Part shown: positions 22,727 through 32,000 of the stretch, piece by piece
Numbering within the stretch: position 1 is the stretch's first letter
Layout of the letters: every line of letters starts with the position of its first letter
From: Methylorubrum extorquens
GTDB lineage: Bacteria; Pseudomonadota; Alphaproteobacteria; Rhizobiales; Beijerinckiaceae
DNA length: 32,000 bases
Reading direction: 5' to 3'
Assembly: GCA_900234795.1 (NCBI GenBank)
Contig: LT962688.1
Coordinates: 5,610,001-5,642,000, forward strand
Notes under the pieces: model-generated
What the model saw: the letters and a program-made list of their open reading frames with translations, nothing else
What the model was told of the DNA's origin: nothing
Database searches by the model: none
Position numbers and translations under genes: made by a program

Positions 22727-23257
22727 GGAACGGAGTTAGTAATTCGGGATCACGCCGCTGATATCAGGGGACCGGACGCCTCGCTCGGTCCGGCGTCTGG
22801 CGTCGCGATCTTGAAGCCGTCAGCCCCGGCGACGAAGCGTACGTGAGAGGGCAGTTCGCGTGTGCTGACCGTGTGTCGCAGCCACGGCCGATCTCGGCAG
22901 CATCGTCACCGGTTTGACGGGGCGACACGACGATGGGCGGGACCATCATCGTTCATTTTGAAATTAGGCAAGCATACCCTCGCACCACCCCGCGTATCCG
23001 CAAGGCAGTGATTACGATCGCGCCGCGTAGCCGAAGCTTCGGCGTCACTGGATATGCTGAAAGTCGGTCAGGAAGCTGACTTCAACGCTCGCCGGAGCTT
23101 AGTGATCTCAACGGCTTACGAGTTTGCAAAGCAGGTGGCGGAGACGGAGGGAATTTCCGAAGGAATGGCCCAACCCGTTCTCGTGCGCACAAGTCTCTGC
23201 GGTCGCTGGACTTTCGGGACATGCTGCGGGACAAATCGATGTTCCGAGGCGGCCGCC

Positions 23258-24840
23258 ATGCCCCGAAAGCCCGATCCGAAGAACGGCTATCTGGGACTGC
23301 ACGACGGGTACGACCGCGTCACGATGGGCGTTCCGGCCAAGCTATGTCCACTGCTCGGCTACCGGCCCAAGTGGGCGCTCGGCACGAAGTCTTTGTTGTC
23401 TGCCAACGTGCTGAAATGGCCCGTCGTGAAGGCTTTCAAACCGCCGAAAGACAAAGCCAGGGGATACTTGAAGACCAGCCGCGCTCGGCTCAAGCGGAAG
23501 CAATCGAATGGGTGAAGATTGTCTCCGATGGTCGCGAAAGAAACGATCCGGAGCTTTATGAGCTCCTCGGAGCCATTGATCTTCGCGCCTACGAAATCGA
23601 GTTCGAAGGCGCGGCAACCCAGCTGGTCGACGTCGACGACGGAGAGTCGCTCGAGCAGCACGAGGAAGCCGTGCTGCGCGAAGATGCGGAACAGCGGGCG
23701 GCACACTTCGCGGCCGTGGCTCTCGGCACCGCGACACCCATCGCCCTCCATCACGACGCCTTCATCAAAAGCACGAAGATCAAGGAGCGATCCCTCAAGG
23801 ACGATGTCCGGGCCATGCATATCCTGCTGAAGTGGTGCGCCGCACGCGGGATCGAGCCATACCTGGAACACGTTACCATCAAAGTCGCCGGCCGCTTCGG
23901 GGATGAGATCGAAGAGTTCACGGGTCTCGGATGGGCCTCCTGCACCAAGTACATTAGTCGACTTAGGGCCTACTGGAAGTACCTCGTGAAGAGAACTCCC
24001 ATAGAAGCGAATGTCTGGATCGGGATCAGCCTGAGCAAGCCCAGGATCGAGCCAGACGAGGAGGAAAGAGCCTTCACTGATGCGGAGGTTCAGCGTCTGC
24101 TGATGGGCACGGCCGATCTCGCCATGCTCGACGTCATGCTGGTTGCAGGTTTGACGGGCGCCCGACTCGACGCGGTGATCGACCTGCGCGTCGGCGAATG
24201 CGAGGATGGATGGTTCACCTTCAAGCCGCAGAAGAAGGAGAGGACGATCCGCGATGTGCCGATACATCCGGACCTGTGCGAACTCGTCGCCCGGCGTGTT
24301 GAAGGCAAAAAGCTTGGAGACGACCTGTTCCCCGAATGGCCTGGTCCGAGAGCTGCATGATCCGTAAGGGAGCGCTCATCATACTTCTCTAAGCGTTTCA
24401 CGAAGTACCGGAGAGATCTCGGCGTCGACGACGTAGTCGAAGGCAAGCGCCGCTCGCTCGTGAATTTCCATTCCTTCCGGCGATGGTTCATCACGAAGGC
24501 CGAGCGGGCCGGTGTCGACGGAGACCTGCTGGCTGCGATCGTCGGCCACAGGCGGTCGGGCCTCACCTTGGGCCGCTACAGCGAAGGTCTCGAGATGGAA
24601 GCGGCAAAGGCTGCGGTCGCGAAGGTCAGACTGCCGCCGTTGGACGGCACTCCGATCGTCGAAGCGCGGCCCCTGATGCCGAGGCGCCGGCAGGTCGCTT
24701 CACGATGGCAGGCGGCGGTCCGGCAGCCGATGTCGCGCACTCCCGACGGGTTCCGATGCAAGCCGTCCCATGTCGCGGCTCGTCGAGGACGTAGAGCGTG
24801 CTCCCTCGCGGGCCCCTCTGCAGCTTGGTCTAAAGCTTGA
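23258..24840 (+). pseudogene. Tyrosine recombinase (phage-type integrase), disrupted
   Basis: - The N-terminus MPRKPDPKNGYLGLHDGYDRVTMGV...LKWPVVKAFK lies in one frame (stop at 23515).
- The body continues in another frame (..AEAIEWVKIV...LLKWCAARGIEPY...AGLTGARLDAVIDLRVGE...RTIRDVPIHPDL).
- An in-frame TGA at 24358-24360 splits it from the catalytic C-terminus LVNFHSFRRWFITKAERAGV...IVGHRRSGLTLGRYSEG (HxxR, GH and Y motifs).
- The 3-prime limit is uncertain. Confidence 0.8.
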
Positions 24841-24956
24841 TGCGCTGGGCCTCGCCACCGGAGAGTTCGGTCGGCAGTTGACCTAGGTCGCGACGCCATA
24901 TCGGTTGGCACAGATGAGGCCTGCCGTCATTGGCCCTGTGGATACGGAGGGTCTGG

Positions 24957-25275
24957 GTGGCTCGGATTGTACTGACGGATGGGGAGTGGGCGTTCATCGA
25001 GCCGTTATTGCCAACGGATGTGCGCGGCAAGGCGCGGGTGAACGACCGGCGTGTGCTCAAGGGCATCTTCTGGCGGCTACGCATGGGAGTGCCCTGGGCC
25101 AACTTCCCAGGCTGCTACGGTCCCCCCTACACGACCTGCGGCAACCGCTTCCGGCGTCGGCGCAGGCACGCGGGATCCTTGAACAACTTATGGATGCTCT
25201 ATCAAAGGCATGCAATTGTGACCTGCAGATGAATGCGGCGAGGCGGTTGCGGCACCCGCCGGCCGGTAAGCGAGC
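24957..25275 (+). mobile_element. IS5-family (IS427-like) transposase gene fragment, frameshifted and 3-prime truncated
   Basis: GGAGG plus a GTG at 24957 gives VARIVLTDGEWAFIEPLLP...RVNDRRVLKGIFWRLRMGVPWANFP..YGPPYTTCGNRFRR. The sequence continues in another frame as GILEQLMDALSKA..DLQM. No DDE region follows. Confidence 0.6.
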
Positions 25276-25281
25276 GAAGGC

Positions 25282-25548
25282 CTACCGAATGGTGTGCCAC
25301 AGATCGGAGACGGTGCGGGCCGCCGCGGTTCGGAGCAGGCCCTTCAACTTGGCGAAGATCTGCTGAGGGGTCGCCGACCGCCAGGTCGGTTGGTGACCAC
25401 TGATCGGATTGAAGTCTGGGTTGTAGGGCGGAGGGTAGAGCAGCCTTGCCCCGGCGGCCTCGATGGCCTCGCGCACACCCGTCACCATGTGGGCCTGCAG
25501 GTTGTCGAGGATGAAGGTGTCGCCGGACCTGAGCACGGGCACGAGTCG
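25282..25548 (-). mobile_element. IS630-family transposase C-terminal fragment
   Basis: LVPVLRSGDTFILDNLQAHMVTGVREAIEAAGARLLYPPPYNPDFNPI....FAKLKGLLRTAAARTVSDLW is the typical C-terminal DDE-region sequence of IS630/Tc1-like transposases. The N-terminal two thirds are missing. Confidence 0.6.
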
Positions 25549-25652
25549 GCATACTCTTTCACCCCTCAACGTCCCAACTCCCAAGCCGTCCCAACCCGCT
25601 CAGCCAGGACTCGGCGCTCCATTGTCTGTCGAGCCCTGTACCAAGCTTACCT

Positions 25653-26153
25653 TCAAGCCGGCTCGGCGACCTTGCGAGACTGACCAGCGCGCTTCGGCTT
25701 AGAGGCCATCGTCGGTTTAGGTGCCGGCTCAGGCGCAGGCTCCGCTTTTTTGCGCGGATTGCCCAGGCCGAGCTGCTTGGCCAGCGCCGAGCGCGATGCC
25801 GAGTAGTTTGCAGCGACTGAGGGGTAATCGTTCGGCAGTCCGTAGCGAGCTCGATACCCTTCGATCGTGAGACCGTGCACGCTGAGATGCCGCTTCAGGG
25901 TGCGATATGGCTTGCCATCAACGTACGAGATCAGCGCGTCCGGCGTAACCGACTTCTTGATCTGCGCTGGCGTCGGCTTCTCGATCTCGCTACCAGCTTC
26001 GGCTGCCGGTGTTGCTGACAGGCTGACAAACGCACCATGCACCTGCAGCAGCAGGGTCGGCAAATCGCATGCTGGGACGGAGTTGTTGCTGACATAGGCA
26101 GCGACGATATCCGCCGTCATCGTGAGCAAGTGGGGTGATGTGTTGTCGTCCAT
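25653..26153 (-). CDS. MucR/Ros-family transcriptional regulator homolog lacking the two zinc-ligand cysteines
   Basis: The ATG at 26153 gives LTMTADIVAAYVSNNSVPACDLPTLLLQVHGAF (Ros N-terminal oligomerisation region). It continues KKSVTPDALISYVDGKPYRTLKRHLSVHGLTIEGYRARYGLPNDYPSVAANYSASRSALAKQLGLG, versus Ros ...[21 protein letters not shown].... It has a long Pro/Lys-rich tail. Confidence 0.85.
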   Translation of the reverse strand: MDDNTSPHLLTMTADIVAAYVSNNSVPACDLPTLLLQVHGAFVSLSATPAAEAGSEIEKPTPAQIKKSVTPDALISYVDGKPYRTLKRHLSVHGLTIEGYRARYGLPNDYPSVAANYSASRSALAKQLGLGNPRKKAEPAPEPAPKPTMASKPKRAGQSRKVAEPA

Positions 26154-26262
26154 AGTGGTGTGCTCTTTCTCAGGCGGCACAATCACGACATTTGCCGTAT
26201 CGCAACAGGTCCACACTAAAATATTTGTGTGGAGGCGTTCAGTTTATCCGGCAGGAGCTTCA

Positions 26263-26292
26263 GCGGGTAGCAGCGGCAAGGCTGCCACCCGC
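26263..26292 (-). terminator. Hairpin directly after the GapR-like gene
   Basis: The minus strand reads GCGGGTGGCAGC-cttgcc-GCTGCTACCCGC, a 12-bp stem with one G-U pair. It begins 9 nt after the stop at 26301. It has no clear U-tract. Confidence 0.45.
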
Positions 26293-26300
26293 CGGAAGAG

Positions 26301-26576
26301 TTAAGCTGCCTGGGCGACGGGCGCAGGAGCATCCATGGCGCGCAGGTAGACCTCCAAAAGGCTCTCCTGTTCGTCGCGCTCGTCCTTGTCCTGCTTGCGC
26401 AGCTTCAGGATCTCTTTGAGCACCCTCACGTCGAGGCCTTCGCCCTTAGCCTCGACGAAGATCTCCTTCTTGGTCTCCATTAGATCCTTGATCTCGTCCT
26501 CGATCCGCTCGACGCGTTCGATGATGGAGCGGATCCGCTCACCTGCGACGCCTACCGTGTCCGTGGTGTCGGTCAT
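26301..26576 (-). CDS. DUF2312 / UPF0335 protein, GapR-family nucleoid-associated protein homolog
   Basis: The ATG at 26576 gives ..GERIRSIIERVERIEDEIKDLMETKKEIFVEAKGEGLDVRVLKEILKLRKQDKDERDEQESLLEVYL. This aligns closely by eye with Caulobacter GapR (..[49 protein letters not shown]...). Confidence 0.85.
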   Translation of the reverse strand: MTDTTDTVGVAGERIRSIIERVERIEDEIKDLMETKKEIFVEAKGEGLDVRVLKEILKLRKQDKDERDEQESLLEVYLRAMDAPAPVAQAA

Positions 26577-26659
26577 GCGTTCCTCGTGCTCACTGGGCAC
26601 GCGCAATCTCGCGGCTCAGGGTAAGCGAGGCGTTAAAGCCGAGATCGCGTACGCGGGTG

Positions 26660-26850
26660 CGGGCGCTGGCCCGGCCCGGTAATGACCGAGCTGATGCGGG
26701 TGCTTGATTGGCGGATCATGCGGCCTGCTCCGCCGGCCATCGCACGACGACGCGGCCGCCCTACCGGCCGGTGCGCTGCCGGTGCTGCGCAAGCCTTTCG
26801 CGCTCGGCGACCTGCGGACGGCCGTCGAGCGGCTCCTGGAGGGCCGACCC
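26660..26850 (+). pseudogene. Remnant of a response-regulator receiver domain (C-terminal end only)
   Basis: One frame reads ...LLRRPSHDDAAALPAGALPVLRKPFALGDLRTAVERLLEG, the typical last strand and helix of a receiver domain. There is no intact N-terminus or start, and the surrounding frames are broken. Confidence 0.3.
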
Positions 26851-27291
26851 GGCCGCATCCTCCCATTCCTGCGGACGGACGATGGTGGGGACGGTCGGGC
26901 CCGTGGAACGGCGGGAAGCCGCCGAGACGGCTCTCCCATCCAGGGCCGCGTCGAGGAAGCCGGCTTGCTCCGAACGGCTCCGAAGAGCCGGCCTCACACC
27001 TGGGCAGCCCCCGAACGCCTCCCACGACATGCTGGTATTGTGTTCGCCGCTTACAGGTCCGCTTTCTACTACTGAGCGGACTTCTGGACCAGCACGCTTG
27101 AAAGTCCGCAAGAATTCGGGAGTTCATACCCCATTTGTTCGGCTGTACGCCACGAGCCGACATTGAGTTAGCAGGCGCTGAACCGCAGCTCTCGGCCCTA
27201 CTCGGACCCCTGAAAAGGCTGCTTCAAGGCAGTCTGATTGAGTGGCCCTGAACGACCGAAGCTAATCGATCGTGGCCCGACCTCCTTTTGA

Positions 27292-27867
27292 TCAGTTTGG
27301 GAGCAATCCCGCCTTTTGATAGCTCTCGATCAACGAGTCGAACAAACGTATGTCCGAGCGGCTTCGAGCGATGATCTGTGCCCCAGCAACAGCAGCATAG
27401 ATAGCGCGGGCTCTCGACTCGCTATCTGTTGGCTCAACTAAGCTTGCAGCGACTAGCTGCTTGCTTAGCCAAGCCGCATTAACGTCTGCAAAAGTCTGAA
27501 CCTCCTTCAACACAGGCTCGGGCAACTCGTCATGTTCTGTAGCCATAAAGCTGCTGAGGCATATACGATTATTGCGTTCCAATGATAAGCGAAAAATACC
27601 GGGATACTGCTTCAACGCGTCAATCGGGCTCTGAGTAGACATGGAAATAGACTCAAGGTCGCGCGCTATATCTTCCCAGTAGCGACGCGCTATCGCCTCG
27701 CCGAGGAGAGCCTTGTTGGCGAAATAGTAGTTGATGCTCGCGGCTTTGATGCCGACAGCTTCCGCGAGGTCGCGAAAATTGATGCCGCCGTAGCCATAGG
27801 CCATCGCTGCATCCCTCGCGGCGGCGAGGATTGCCTCCCTTACATTCGCCTTCAACGTTGCTGCCAT
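27292..27867 (-). CDS. TetR/AcrR-family transcriptional regulator
   Basis: The ATG at 27867 follows GGAGGTTGGAG. The HTH is REAILAAARDAAMAYGYGGINFRDLAEAVGIKAASINYYFANKALL. Length is 191 aa. The track ORF extension to 28077 overlaps the divergent GST gene. Confidence 0.85.
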   Translation of the reverse strand: MAATLKANVREAILAAARDAAMAYGYGGINFRDLAEAVGIKAASINYYFANKALLGEAIARRYWEDIARDLESISMSTQSPIDALKQYPGIFRLSLERNNRICLSSFMATEHDELPEPVLKEVQTFADVNAAWLSKQLVAASLVEPTDSESRARAIYAAVAGAQIIARSRSDIRLFDSLIESYQKAGLLPN

Positions 27868-27879
27868 CTCCAACCTCCG

Positions 27880-27950
27880 TCTGCCATATGGCAGACAGGG
27901 GTTGACAGCACAAGGCTTGGGCCGTAGCCCTCTATCTGTCATCTGACAGA
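27880..27950. promoter_or_regulatory. Two related 16-bp palindromes (putative TetR operators) and a TTGACA box in the TetR/GST divergent intergenic region
   Basis: TCTGCCATATGGCAGA (27880-27895) and TCTGTCATCTGACAGA (27935-27950) share the half-site TCTG(C/T)CA. TTGACA (27902-27907) lies between them. Confidence 0.5.
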
Positions 27951-27981
27951 CAGACGACCTTCTTCGGAAAGCGAGACGACA

Positions 27982-28680
27982 ATGTCCGACAAGCTCAAGC
28001 TCTTCACCTCTCCCTCGGCCTTCCCCAACCCGCAGCGCCTGCGGATCTTCATGCACGAGAAGGGTATCGCCGGTCACTTCGACGAGACGATCTATGATAT
28101 GTCACCAGTCGGCGAGCAGCGGGGTTGGAAGCACCTGAAGATGAACGCTTGGGGCGAGACACCGACCCTTGCGCTTGCTGACGGCTCTTACCTCAGCGAG
28201 ACCTCCGCCATCGCCCGCTACCTCGACGACACGTTCGAAGGCCGCAAGATCATGGGCGAGACGGCGCACGAGCGCGGCCTCGATCAGATGTGGGACAACC
28301 GGGTGTGGGTGCACATCCTCTATCCCATCGTCACTGCATTCCATGTCCTGCACCAGGGGCTGGGACCGAAGCTCGAACTGACCAGCAATCCGGCCTGGGG
28401 CGAGCATTCGCGTAAGGTGGCACTGACGCACGCGGGTCTGGTCGACCGACATCTTGCGGACGGGCGGGAATGGCTGCTGGGCGGCAGTCAGCCCACCTTC
28501 TCGGACATCACGCTGGCGACGGCGATCGCTTTCTCCAAGTTCCCGATCAATGCCACCCCGCTCGATGAGCGCTTCGAGCATATCGACGCCTTCTGGCAGC
28601 GCTGGCAGACTCGGCCAACCTTTCTTGCTGCCTACGCCGATAGAAGCAGCGGCGTGCCAGAGATCGACAGCCGCGCTTGA
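27982..28680 (+). CDS. Glutathione S-transferase family protein
   Basis: 232 aa. The N-terminal thioredoxin-like part has ETPTLALADGSYLSETSAIARYLD. The C-terminal helical domain has FSDITLATAIAF. Confidence 0.85.
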   Translation: MSDKLKLFTSPSAFPNPQRLRIFMHEKGIAGHFDETIYDMSPVGEQRGWKHLKMNAWGETPTLALADGSYLSETSAIARYLDDTFEGRKIMGETAHERGLDQMWDNRVWVHILYPIVTAFHVLHQGLGPKLELTSNPAWGEHSRKVALTHAGLVDRHLADGREWLLGGSQPTFSDITLATAIAFSKFPINATPLDERFEHIDAFWQRWQTRPTFLAAYADRSSGVPEIDSRA

Positions 28681-29116
28681 GTATCCTGCAGTGATCTCGG
28701 CGGCTGACTGCTCTTACTTTGAGCCGAGGAGACGATTAAGCCTTATATCTTGGTGCGGAGGGCTTTGATGACCCTCTGCCCAAGAGGGCCCATAGACTGA
28801 TTGAGTGCACGAGGACGAAGGTCCGGTTTTGGGCATCAATCTAGCATCCGCTGTCCACCCTTTGCAGAAGCTGGGAACGTCTGCTTGTGAGATCGTAGGT
28901 TAGCCCGCGACCTATAGGCGGGTTGGGTGGGTTTGCGGCGGTCTGCTTCTGAGTGGGAGTTGTCGAAAGCGGACGCTGCCGGCGCCCCACTCGCCAGCGA
29001 TGCCTGCCGCTCAGGTCATCCGCATGTTGAGCAGCGAACGATAGATTGCAGGAGTAAACTAAGCGGGTACCTATCATTGGCGCTGTTCAAGGTCTGGGTC
29101 TCGGTGGCCTGCCTCC

Positions 29117-29595
29117 TGAACAGTGGTCCTCCTTGAGGTATGGCTTTAAGCAATGTGGAGGACGTTTTGATGCGTCGGAAGAGGCATGCGGCTAAGATTC
29201 CGTCGCCAAGCTGCGTTAGGTCGATGTCTTGGTCTCGCAAGGCCGCAAGGTCGCTGAAGCAATACGGTCCATCGAGGTAACGGAGGTCATGTACGGACGA
29301 ACTCCTCAACGGCGAGGTGTCCTACACCCTCTAGGAAGCCAGAGTCGTGATCGAGCAATGGCGGACGCTCTACACCAGCATTCGGCCGCACGCTTCACTC
29401 GGCTGCCGCCCACCTGCGCCGGAGGTCGTCATTTGCCAACGGAACCGAGCGGCTCAGTGCCGTCCGCTCGCCCTGCCATCGTCACACGACCAACGATGCA
29501 CGAACTTCGAACCTGGGCCACTGGATCGGGATAGGCCACTTAGACCTGATCGGAGCCTTTATCTGTGCGCCGATCAGGAGCCATTGAATGCCTAA
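29117..29595 (+). mobile_element. Degenerate, internally deleted IS3-family element remnant
   Basis: - orfA starts MRRKRHAA (ATG at 29170), then shifts frame to ..VAKLR*VDVLVSQGRKVAEAIRSIEVTEVMYGR (HTH), with stops near 29193 and 29217.
- At about 29296 it jumps directly into the orfB C-terminus DELLNGEVSYTL*EARVVIEQWRTLYTSIRPHASLGCRPPAPEV (TAG at 29332-29334).
- The element ends are not defined. Confidence 0.6.
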
Positions 29596-29959
29596 TGACG
29601 CGAGGTCTCCGGCCTTCGACAGTCTCGCCCCTATCCCGCCGGCAGACTTCGTCGCGGCTTGGCGCACCATCGTCGGTGAGCCTCCCGCTGTCCTGCTTCC
29701 GAGCCGGTCCGAGATGATCCGGATCCTCTTTAAGAGCATGCCGGTTGCGTCAGCTCGCATTGACGAGCCGGCTCCATGCGTATCCCAATAGAGATCTGGC
29801 AGAACCCAAAAATGGAACGGCCACAGGGGCCGGAACGAAGGTGCACGTACATCCGGCGTCACCTTAATCCCGGCATCGTGGCCGCGTCCGATCAAGCGAC
29901 AGGATCGCGATCTGCATGACCCTGCGATGGGGACAGCATAGTTAACAATCAATGAGCGG

Positions 29960-29993
29960 CCCCGCCGCCCGATCTGCTCACGGGCTGGCGGGG
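29960..29993 (-). terminator. Strong hairpin after the small secreted-protein ORF
   Basis: CCCCGCC-GCCCG-atctgctca-CGGGC-t-GGCGGGG forms 12 bp with a one-nucleotide bulge. It lies 16 nt beyond the stop at 30009. On the minus strand it is followed by a T-containing tract, CTCATTGATTGTT. Confidence 0.5.
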
Positions 29994-30008
29994 CGTGTCG
30001 TGCCCCTG

Positions 30009-30290
30009 TTATCGCCTTGGGCCACCAGAGGTCATGCCGTAATTGGGCACATAGCGGTCATTGAGTTCCGCGTTGCCCTCTTTGTCTGAGCGATCGATGC
30101 CGCGGTTCCAATGTGTGCCGATGGAGCCGGTCGTGAGGTCATCGAAGGCGTGCGGTGCCGGCCGATCCGTGAAGAAGCTCGACGGCTTTTCACCTCGGAT
30201 CGTTGAATAGTTCTGAGCAAAGGCAGGCGGTGAGAACGCACTAACGCCCAGAACAAAAGCGGTGATAGCAGAATTGATACGAGTGTTCAT
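30009..30290 (-). CDS. Hypothetical small secreted protein (93 aa)
   Basis: The internal ATG at 30290 gives MNTRINSAITAFVLGVSAFSPPAFA-QNYST..., a clear Sec signal peptide with an AFA cleavage motif. A terminator hairpin lies downstream. I recognise no family and the Shine-Dalgarno sequence is weak. Confidence 0.45.
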   Translation of the reverse strand: MNTRINSAITAFVLGVSAFSPPAFAQNYSTIRGEKPSSFFTDRPAPHAFDDLTTGSIGTHWNRGIDRSDKEGNAELNDRYVPNYGMTSGGPRR

Positions 30291-30530
30291 AGCACAACCC
30301 TGTAAGGCTTGCGCGGTCTCCGTCGAATGGCGGCTGGCCGTGACTTGTTGCGTAGCGGTGAGGTAGGCCTGAACTTTCTGGAATGACGTGCCGTTTGGCA
30401 CTGCACCATCGATGCCTTTCTCCTCATCCGATGTATCGCGACCCCGCAGGTTCTCCAGGTTTTCGTCGGCGGCTGGACCATGATGCTGATCGGCAGGATG
30501 GTGACCCAGGCGCGTGGCGATTGTGAACAT

Positions 30531-30848
30531 CTATCGCCGCCCGCGCCGGCCAGTATCGCCGATGTGCCGCCGCCCTTCCTCTATGGGCCTTGAGGGGCGG
30601 TGGACCTGATACTCGAATTGCGCGATCTCGCCCGCCGCCAGAGGGAGGACACGGACCGGATCGCCGAGTGCGTCCGCATCATCTGAGAGGAGTCGAAACG
30701 CCAGACCGAACTCCTCGGCCTCATTGAGCGCGAGCAAGGGATCGAGAACCGGGCTCATCACCCCGGAACCAGCCGTGAGCCCCTGCTTCGTCGCCATCAC
30801 CCTGGCCAGCATGCTTGCGAGCGGGAAGCCGTCTAAGGACGCCCGCAC
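30531..30848 (-). CDS. Hypothetical ORF (105 aa), possibly a gene fragment
   Basis: This is an open frame only, with no recognisable motif. It is in the same reading frame as ORF 30009..30530 and separated from it by a single TAG (30531-30533). Confidence 0.25.
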   Translation of the reverse strand: MRASLDGFPLASMLARVMATKQGLTAGSGVMSPVLDPLLALNEAEEFGLAFRLLSDDADALGDPVRVLPLAAGEIAQFEYQVHRPSRPIEEGRRHIGDTGRRGRR

Positions 30849-31682
30849 CTACCTCTACATCGGCCCAAGCACGCGCATCACGATCCTGCACTAAAGCGCA
30901 TGAACCTTACATGTATTAATATTTCTTTAGATTTAGCGCGCAATCACCATATTACTATAAACTTATAAGCGATATTTGCATCGACAAGCACCTAATGTGC
31001 TGCAGGCGGGACAGCTGTTTGCGCAATTGATCGACCGATACGGCTCATCGGGGGCGCCGTCATTTGAGCGTTAGACATTGGCACGAGGATGCAGATCAAA
31101 AATAAGTTACGGGTATCGTAAGCGGTCGAACGTGAGGCGGCAGTCCGACCGCTCATAAGTTGTGAGTTATAAGTATATCGTGCGGCGGGTCGGTTGTGGT
31201 TGTTCGTATTGTATCCGGCCTGTCCGGATCCATAGGCCAAGCTTATGCGAGATGGCGGGATCCCATAGGCAGCCACAGAAATCGAATGGCTGCTGTTGGG
31301 TGCCAAACAGCCATTCCGACAGCGGAGATCGAAGTTCCGAAAGTGGCGCGTAGCCGACCAGTCGGCATGCTAACTCCTGACCCATAGCTGACTATTCGCA
31401 TCAACACTTTGAAGGTCTGCTCTTCGGCCTGAAGCAGACGCGTCACGGCCAGTCATAACGTCAGCAGGTGCGGGCAAATTTGCGACCGGATCGTACCCGG
31501 CCCTAAGGCCACGTCACATCCGGGCTAAAGCTTACTCACACCGACGATAGCGTGCGGCCTGCAAGCCGGGCAGTGCCCGCCTGCGTCCAGGACCGGTCGG
31601 GTGCCCAGGCGCACACTTTAGATCGCAAGCTAACGAATTGTTTGGCTTGCCACATCGTTCGAGGCTAGAAGGGACGAGACAT

Positions 31683-31862
31683 CGACGCGCGGGAGAGAGC
31701 CGGCTTGGACCGGCCGCCGAAGGAGCAACCGCCCCGGAAACTCTCAGGCACCCGGACCGCACGTCGTTCAACACTCTGGAAAGCGGAGCGGCAGCTCCCG
31801 CCGATGGTGTAAGGTGTGGCCTCTCCCGAGGCCGCGTTGAAGCTCTCAGGCCGATGACAGAG
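31683..31862 (+). promoter_or_regulatory. Tandem glycine riboswitch (two aptamers)
   Basis: - Aptamer 1 (31683-31768) is GACGCGCG-GGAGAG-..-CGCCGAAGGAGCAA-..-CTCTCAGGC-ACCC-GGAC-CGCACGTC. Its P1 is GACGCGCG/CGCACGTC.
- Aptamer 2 (31774-31862) is CTCTG-GAAAG-..-CGCCGATGGTGTAA-..-CTCTCAGGC-CGAT-GAC-AGAG. Its P1 is CTCTG/CAGAG.
- Both match the conserved glycine aptamer cores GGAGAG, CaCCGAAGGgGCAA and CUCUCAGGCaaaaGGAC. Confidence 0.85.
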
Positions 31863-31933
31863 GGGGCTCGCACGCATGCGGCGTGCGGAGCAACCTTGGA
31901 GGCCTGCGCGATGACGCCCCCATAGCCCGACAC

Positions 31934-31953
31934 GCCGAGCCCTCGGGCTCGGC
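31934..31953 (+). terminator. Hairpin in the riboswitch expression platform
   Basis: The stem is GCCGAGCC / GGCTCGGC (8 bp; 9 if the closing C-G pair forms over a 2-nt loop). It lies 70 nt after aptamer 2. A second 7-bp hairpin, CGCACGC-atgcg-GCGTGCG, is at about 31870-31888. There is no U-tract, so its role is uncertain. Confidence 0.3.
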
Positions 31954-32000
31954 ACATCCTTCCCATTCGCACCGACCGGCTCACACCGTGGGTCGCGGCG

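Follow-up and report, generated by a model that had tools for sequence, protein, structure and literature searches.

Background

MucR acts as a xenogeneic silencer, and the islands of Methylobacterium are rich in its paralogues (PMC7710501, PMC9410896). There are 31–45 MucR homologues per Methylobacterium genome, 15 of the 31 in strain 4-46 being located in AT-rich islands, and co-transfer of MucR with AT-rich DNA has been proposed by the same authors (Jiao et al. 2020, PMC7710501). The locus described here is a mucR-like gene with a gapR-like gene directly upstream of it, found in a 32,000-nt stretch of Methylorubrum extorquens DNA (GCA_900234795.1, contig LT962688.1, positions 5,610,001–5,642,000, forward strand); this whole stretch is referred to as the window, and coordinates are counted from its first letter. 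A first-pass annotation had proposed that the pair is a silencing or anti-silencing module encoded by a mobile element.

Some Ros/MucR proteins function in the absence of zinc. In Mesorhizobium loti homologues the first Cys ligand can be Ser, Asp is common at the second ligand position, where it is the most frequent residue in the family as a whole, and the fourth ligand, a His, is not always conserved (PMC12948726); two of them, Ml4 and Ml5, need no zinc either to fold or to bind DNA (PMC5693944). Ml5, which has Ser at the first position, assembles into 12-mer rings by way of L34/L37/I38 and is an H-NS-like bridger of AT-rich DNA (PMC11662661), and Ser at this position is the signature of the zinc-free Ml4 and Ml5 (PMC12948726, PMC11662661). 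GapR and MucR have also been seen together in Caulobacter, where GapR and MucR1/2 sites overlap or adjoin at NtrC sites inside a mobile element (bioRxiv 10.1101/2023.06.06.543975).

A mobile gapR-mucR cassette

The locus is probably a two-gene nucleoid-protein cassette on an acquired, decaying island, one that would bring its own AT-preferring nucleoid proteins and fill a role like that of the 'stealth' paralogues of other mobile elements. Its parts are the following:

25653–26153, minus strand: mucR-like gene, 166 aa from the ATG of MDDNTSP, with a ribosome-binding-site-like GAAAGAG in front (open reading frame and Pfam); it encodes an N-terminal oligomerisation domain, a zinc-free Ros/MucR DNA-binding domain, a disordered Pro/Ala/Glu linker and a basic tail
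26154–26300, minus strand: spacer between gapR and mucR, 147 nt (alignment of cassette copies)
26261–26294, minus strand: GC-rich hairpin with a 14-bp stem and a 6-nt loop, beginning 6 nt past the gapR stop
26301–26576, minus strand: gapR-like gene, 91 aa, upstream of the mucR-like gene (open reading frame and Pfam)
26577–26645, minus strand: upstream region of gapR, about 65 nt, including TTAACGCCTCGCTTACC at 26620–26636; upstream end of the cassette

Both open reading frames were confirmed where they had first been annotated, on the same strand and with the gapR-like gene directly upstream, and no further copy of either was found elsewhere in the window. The cassette measures 1.04 kb (window 25607–26645, limits by blastn), and the spacer is 147–148 nt long in all copies. 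Copies lie beside an integrase (the window and loci L001, L002 and L086), between SNase and patatin genes amid insertion sequence (IS) elements in several M. extorquens genomes (L087–L092), and in a further context in M. aminovorans (L006). This distribution over at least three Methylorubrum contexts shows, at the level of sequence comparison, that the cassette is mobile. As to the possibility, raised at the outset, that the two genes sit in a conserved core context, the cassette occupies differing IS-rich places and the core gapR lies elsewhere, by a hydrolase gene.

Selection on the two genes was gauged from the ratio of non-synonymous to synonymous divergence (dN/dS) between cassette copies. 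For gapR this ratio is 0.05–0.10, with a synonymous divergence (dS) of 0.40 between the window and L087 and 0.24 between the window and L006; for mucR it is 0.12–0.19, with dS values of 0.67 and 0.42 for the same comparisons. As these ratios are low, both genes are evidently maintained under purifying selection. The description of the pair as the preserved cargo of the island therefore stands, both genes being intact and under purifying selection beside a dead integrase.

The MucR-like protein

The MucR-like protein matches Pfam ROS_MUCR (PF05443) over its full length (E=6.4e-38, 130 bits against a cut-off of 25.4, profile positions 2–123 of 123), and a HMMER alignment matches it to the solved Ros87 domain (2JSP) with E=8.2e-16. 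Full-length Pfam matches and matches to solved structures, those of GapR being given below, make the original family assignments of both proteins, MucR/Ros and GapR (DUF2312), correct.

HMMER and MAFFT alignments agree in placing Ser76 opposite Ros C79, Asp79 opposite C82 and His89 opposite H92; in the alignment to Ros87, His93 falls opposite H96/H97 with a one-residue gap in between. The resulting set (S76, D79, H89, H93) corresponds to neither a Cys2His2 nor a CysAspHis2 zinc site, and the earlier observation that the CxxC ligands are replaced while His residues are kept was accurate. The label 'cysteine-less' applies to part of the protein: its one Cys, C29, lies in the N-terminal domain at a position usually occupied by Ser in the aligned homologues. 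No Cys is present in its DNA-binding domain or tail, nor in the DNA-binding domain of any of 120 homologues, these being the nearest cluster representatives (56–95% identical where full-length, mostly Methylorubrum/Methylobacterium). With no Cys in this domain or the tail, there are therefore no Cys ligands at shifted positions, a possibility that had been raised.

The S..D ligand pattern is invariant in the same set (120/120), and the fourth ligand position is variable, with H in 79, N in 35 and others in 7 (H/N/R/A/K/S/Y). Ser at the first ligand position together with a variable fourth ligand is how the zinc-free subgroup has been delimited (PMC12948726, PMC11662661), and the window protein has both features. 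The first-pass annotation had pointed to zinc-independent Ros homologs in Mesorhizobium, which the Ml4/Ml5 literature bears out as a real precedent, and had singled out the S/D substitution as worth checking. This pattern turns out to be nothing special: it is shared by all 120 nearest homologues, Ser being the published hallmark of Ml4/Ml5 and Asp the commonest residue at the second position in the family. On these alignments the protein is shown to be a member of a large Methylobacteriaceae expansion of zinc-free Ser/Asp Ros/MucR proteins, a class exemplified by Ml5.

The oligomerisation motif is also present, as L31-P32-T33-L34-L35, with L31 nearly invariant and L34 invariant in the homologue alignment and an L-P-x-L-[LIV]-type motif in 112 of the 120 sequences. 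By inspection of the sequence, L31/L34/L35 were matched to L36/L39/I40 of MucR and L34/L37/I38 of Ml5 (reference residues: PMC11662661). A side observation concerns a 248-aa MucR homologue from a metagenome (P0041), in which two tandem, near-identical zinc-free S..D DNA-binding domains stand behind one N-terminal domain.

The long Pro/Lys-rich tail described earlier is real and consists of a Pro/Ala/Glu linker with a basic end; residues 134–166 have a predicted local distance difference test (pLDDT) score below 50 in AlphaFold and are predicted to be disordered. In the Methylobacteriaceae S..D subfamily the tail is about 30 aa long, its linker ending in KPKR-x-G-R-P-RK (gene end 25653–25750 in the window). 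An AT-hook is defined by a Gly-Arg-Pro core between basic residues, and the subfamily motif resembles one: 33 of the 120 homologues have GRP, and 76 of 80 matched tails have the central Arg. In the window copy the tail sequence is KPKRAGQSRK, where the subfamily has KPKRAGRPRK, and GRP is absent. The text searches made in MucR papers found no description of this tail motif.

The GapR-like protein

The GapR-like protein matches Pfam GapR_DNA-bd (PF10073) along the whole profile (positions 2–72 of 72, E=6e-27, 93.5 bits against a cut-off of 22.6), seven distinct GapR sequences in the PDB (E=2e-19 to 3e-15) and phrog_4212. It falls below the thresholds of the NCBIfam GapR equivalog NF052541 (77.6 bits, cut-off 140) and of PRK13694 (85.5, cut-off 94). 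Identity to core GapR is 83–88% overall, being 85% to a Methylorubrum protein (P0136) and 83% to one from Methylobacterium (P0181), both of 93 aa.

The 93-aa gene adjoins an alpha/beta-hydrolase gene at four Methylorubrum loci and at two of three Methylobacterium loci, and no mucR, IS element or integrase was found near the examined loci of this kind. Because of this conserved hydrolase synteny without mucR, IS element or integrase, the 93-aa copies are taken as the core ones; the window gene, lying in an island cassette of varying context, is no syntenic core copy. In an identity matrix the mucR-linked gapR copies form a tight group, 92–95% identical to one another, and the distance of this group to the core copies is about the distance between genera.

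A 17-nt element, TTAACGCCTCGCTTACC (26620–26636, minus strand), lies some 45 nt upstream of the start codon of gapR and, with adjacent shared bases, is common to the accessory and core genes, being kept upstream of core gapR in both Methylorubrum and Methylobacterium (L097, L102). It may be a promoter or operator of gapR; a loose likeness to the CtrA-type TTAA-N-TTAC box was also noted. As the upstream motif is shared with core gapR, the sequences show the gapR-like gene to be an accessory duplicate of core gapR, recent and from within the family, made at the DNA level and with its native 5' region retained.

This close likeness to the core protein bears on another reading of the locus, namely that the two proteins join host MucR and GapR in mixed oligomers, weaken them, and so de-repress island or foreign genes. 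At 85% identity to the core copy, GapR heteromers are plausible; the N-terminal oligomerisation motif of the MucR-like protein is conserved, the basic tail of the window copy is degenerate, and MucR2 and MucR3 of S. meliloti are known to bind DNA without bridging it (PMC13297338). However, the DNA-binding domains of both proteins are intact and conserved, neither resembles a truncated dominant-negative of the H-NST kind, and other cassette copies retain the full KPKRAGRPRK tail, all of which makes such anti-silencing quite improbable.

Spacer and transcription units

A terminator hairpin had been described between the two genes. The GC-rich hairpin is real and terminator-like, the intergenic fold having a z-score of −4.4, but it has no U-tract, and a consensus terminator scan found no canonical terminator between the genes. 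The same hairpin follows the accessory gapR in L104 and L105, and core gapR copies have hairpins of their own; judged from the aligned copies, the hairpin belongs to the gapR unit and moves with gapR.

The 147-nt spacer is conserved among cassette copies and is also kept upstream of mucR in L093 and L094, which have no gapR and where homology ends at 26290. It contains an AT-rich palindrome, CCACACAAATATTTTAGTGTGG (26211–26232), which can be written CCACAC-AAATATTTTA-GTGTGG; this holds the AAATA/T-A-step core reported for Ml/MucR targets and is only partly conserved in other cassettes. The spacer probably holds the mucR promoter, and gapR and mucR are probably transcribed separately, what links them being mainly their shared descent as a 1.04-kb unit.

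Island setting

The degraded island seen in the first annotation was found again, with a drop in GC content, an integrase pseudogene and fragments of IS5-, IS630- and IS3-type elements. The features around the cassette are:

22900–32000, right end beyond the window: lower-GC accessory region (composition, Pfam, blastn to L086)
23258–24711, plus strand: tyrosine-integrase pseudogene, DUF6538 + Phage_integrase type (tblastn of the L086 integrase, Pfam)
24930–25232, plus strand: N-terminus of an IS4/IS5-type transposase, DUF4096, between integrase and mucR (Pfam)
25282–25584, minus strand: DDE_3/IS630-type transposase fragment, between integrase and mucR (Pfam)
27292–27867, minus strand: TetR gene (Pfam)
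27982–28680, plus strand: GST gene (Pfam)
29347–29595, plus strand: IS3-type rve_3 fragment (Pfam)

GC content falls from 0.66–0.75 in the 1-kb windows upstream to 0.55–0.64 at about 22.9 kb, roughly from 0.69 to 0.60, and ranges over 0.51–0.69 in 300-nt windows across the region. The integrase gene is broken by a frameshift near codon 60 and by an in-frame stop at 24358–24360; at the same chromosomal site in the sister genome CP073633.1 it is intact (484 aa, L086 9440–10894). By blastn, homology to this genome is 95% over 9.5 kb and ends at window 27198, beyond which the window has the TetR and GST genes as opposed to MarR and FUSC efflux genes in CP073633.1. Only short, chance-looking matches were found as att-like direct repeats bounding the island, and the window has no tRNA genes. 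Close relatives are named Methylorubrum extorquens.

The integrase was considered as a part of the cassette and rejected: a DUF6538-type integrase lies near no other MucR locus among the 103 loci compared, and it is therefore specific to this site and outside the cassette. A reading as a defence system was likewise dropped, with zero PADLOC matches for either protein. An 89-aa open reading frame at 26761–27030 on the minus strand, upstream of gapR, is called in the L001 and L002 contigs but matches no Pfam family; the stretch of the island that holds it is GC-rich (0.68–0.69), and it may not be a real gene.

The surroundings also speak to the view that the two proteins are not nucleoid proteins but ordinary local transcription factors for specific island cargo genes nearby. 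The earliest descriptions of Ros/MucR proteins were of specific repressors (PMC9779718), and genes for TetR and PAS-GerE/LuxR-type regulators are found in the vicinity. Against this, the neighbours differ completely from one context to another (integrase and IS elements, SNase and patatin, histidine kinase) and no conserved target gene travels along, making this the least probable of the explanations.

Pairing of the two genes

Several observations weigh against a nucleoid-protein cassette with a role of its own. A GapR-like gene lies within 6 kb of a subfamily MucR gene (54–83% identical) at 2 of 80 genome loci, L006 and L007, and no MucR-like sequence is found within 4 kb of any of the three best plasmid gapR copies. 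In L093 and L094, where mucR is 75% identical, mucR and the spacer are kept and gapR is not; behind the accessory gapR of L104 and L105, no mucR start occurs in the 212 nt and 148 nt, respectively, left before the contig end. The window MucR has Gln in place of the central tail Arg and Tyr in place of F77, which is Phe in 119 of 120 homologues. Because an identical protein is encoded by an isolate assembly, GCA_001423385.1 (LMNP01000029.1, a contig that ends inside the island, at window 27702), and by a metagenome contig from JGI, both sharing about 99.7% identity with the window, Tyr77 and the tail Gln are not sequencing errors; given both changes, this copy may be weakened. The AlphaFold model of the MucR-like protein, built with a 30-sequence alignment, was rejected for its low pLDDT of 60.5 and a DNA-binding domain built as helices. 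The drop in GC is moderate, leaving a region of about 55–63% GC that is not truly AT-rich, and we infer the accessory status of the pair in this genome, alongside a core gapR and other mucR genes, from related genomes and the literature.

With 2 of 80 genome loci and 0 of 3 plasmid gapR loci, and with 4 of 51 viral contigs in which the genes are 3–5 kb apart, GapR/MucR pairing does not hold as a general rule. In one of the two genome cases the order is reversed: at L007 6001–6845, from Methylorubrum salsuginis, a MucR paralogue (65% identical to that of the window) is followed, 74 nt past its stop, by an accessory gapR (92% identical). Origin of this order by tandem duplication was rejected; with no gapR 3' remnant, hairpin or cassette spacer relic upstream of mucR, the arrangement is more likely a separate juxtaposition. 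A small tyrosine recombinase gene was noted 2.5 kb downstream.

In the four IMG/VR contigs (L111, L117, L125, L144), out of 51 with a subfamily MucR, a distant GapR-like gene (40–45% identical) lies upstream of it on the same strand. These are Methylobacterium-type prophage contigs, and by reading of their sequences the open reading frames between the two genes look like RusA, HNH-endonuclease and adenine-methylase genes. Ser occupies the first ligand position in 48 of 52 MucR matches on the 51 viral contigs, a figure to be read with the search pattern, which favours this subfamily. MucR-like records number 501 from plasmids and 6 from phages, and GapR-like records 62 and 37. The mucR subfamily is multi-copy, with three loci in each of four genomes and two in AP025942.1.

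Adjacency may also be meaningless: a gapR duplicate and one MucR paralogue could have been juxtaposed once and spread in Methylorubrum by recombination between IS-rich regions, each protein acting or idling independently. The adjacency is almost confined to one clade, with mucR copies 75–95% identical; the genes look like separate transcription units, the stretch between them holding a hairpin and a retained promoter region; mucR alone occurs in L093/L094, and gapR alone in L003–L005, L104 and L107; and dozens of MucR paralogues are available per genome (PMC7710501). Chance linkage of this kind is a serious contender, yet it is the less probable account, since purifying selection acts on both genes in every cassette copy, M. 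salsuginis has a reversed pair that involves a different MucR paralogue, GapR-like genes recur upstream in the four viral contigs, and GapR and MucR share targets in Caulobacter.

Proposed function and significance

Under the preferred reading, that of a cassette supplying its own nucleoid proteins, the MucR-like protein would oligomerise through its conserved L-P-x-L-L N-terminal helices and would bind and bridge AT-richer DNA without zinc, as Ml5 does, acting as an H-NS-like silencer of the lower-GC island DNA; it would probably repress its own promoter through the palindrome at 26211–26232. The GapR paralogue would act on the same regions, AT-rich or overtwisted, by adding to GapR dosage or by entering the GapR tetramers of the host. 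Together they would limit unwanted expression of island genes and spare the host nucleoid-protein pools from titration. Such a stealth or silencing role is plausible.

A stronger version, in which GapR and a zinc-free, AT-hook-tailed MucR cooperate on shared AT-rich or overtwisted DNA as a dedicated mobile two-component chromatin module of Methylobacteriaceae to insulate new DNA, with the prophage linkage as its second form, is unlikely. Were it true, no earlier case would exist of xenogeneic silencing recruiting a GapR paralogue, nor of unrelated nucleoid-protein families mobilised as a pair, and cooperation would link the supercoil-sensing GapR to that process.

Much of what is seen here is documented or readily seen in databases, including MucR proteins of the zinc-free Ser type, the island-located expansion of MucR in Methylobacterium, and homologues of MucR and GapR on plasmids and phages. 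The tight gapR-mucR cassette, the derivation of its gapR from the core gene together with the upstream region, and the AT-hook-like tail of the subfamily appear not to be described in the literature searched; text searches of PMC7710501 found no mention of a linked gapR paralogue or a basic tail motif. The main yield is a catalogued example of described classes, together with a lead, the conserved basic tail motif. The locus bears on the questions of how MucR-type silencers handle foreign DNA in Alphaproteobacteria and why Methylobacterium keeps dozens of copies (PMC7710501). The cassette offers a compact natural test case, as its MucR is zinc-free and its GapR nearly a copy of the essential one, and as it occurs in several contexts and, at the same site in a sister genome, next to an intact integrase.

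Comparison with known systems

'Stealth' paralogues of host silencers are proposed to avoid titrating the host protein and to keep the genes of their element quiet. The examples closest to the present locus are the H-NS paralogues Sfh of R27, Sfx of R6K and Pmr of pCAR1, with which it shares a mobile element carrying a paralogue of a host AT-binding nucleoid protein. A paralogue on a horizontal element in the sense of Sfh is what was found, given the island signs, the 85% identity of the GapR-like protein to the core copy and the multi-copy mucR subfamily. The locus differs in having MucR and GapR in place of H-NS/MvaT, in bringing two nucleoid proteins together, and in its setting, a chromosomal island that has decayed and shows no transfer genes within the window.

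In comparison to GapR of Caulobacter crescentus (CCNA_03428 / CC_3319), the window protein has the full DUF2312 domain, matches the solved structure with E=5.7e-19 and largely keeps the basic residues of the clamp. It is about 46% identical, falls below the equivalog cut-off, and is an accessory duplicate.

The MucR-like protein is closest in kind to Ml5 (mll6119, Q98A76) and Ml4 of Mesorhizobium loti, a comparison that rests on the published descriptions of these two. The Ros/MucR fold, Ser at the first ligand position, a fourth ligand that is not conserved and flexible tails are common to all, and the N-terminal L-x2-L-[IL] oligomerisation residues are kept. Ml4 differs in that Glu81 closes the segment matched to Ros H76-C82, which means that its second ligand may be Glu and not Asp (PMC5933289). 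Unlike Ml4 and Ml5, the window protein belongs to a Methylobacteriaceae-specific expansion, has an extra tail of about 30 aa of the type ending in KPKR-x-G-R-P-RK, and is island-borne. It shares with the Methylobacterium MucR expansion the same host genus and island-borne paralogues (PMC7710501), to which the window adds a linked gapR.

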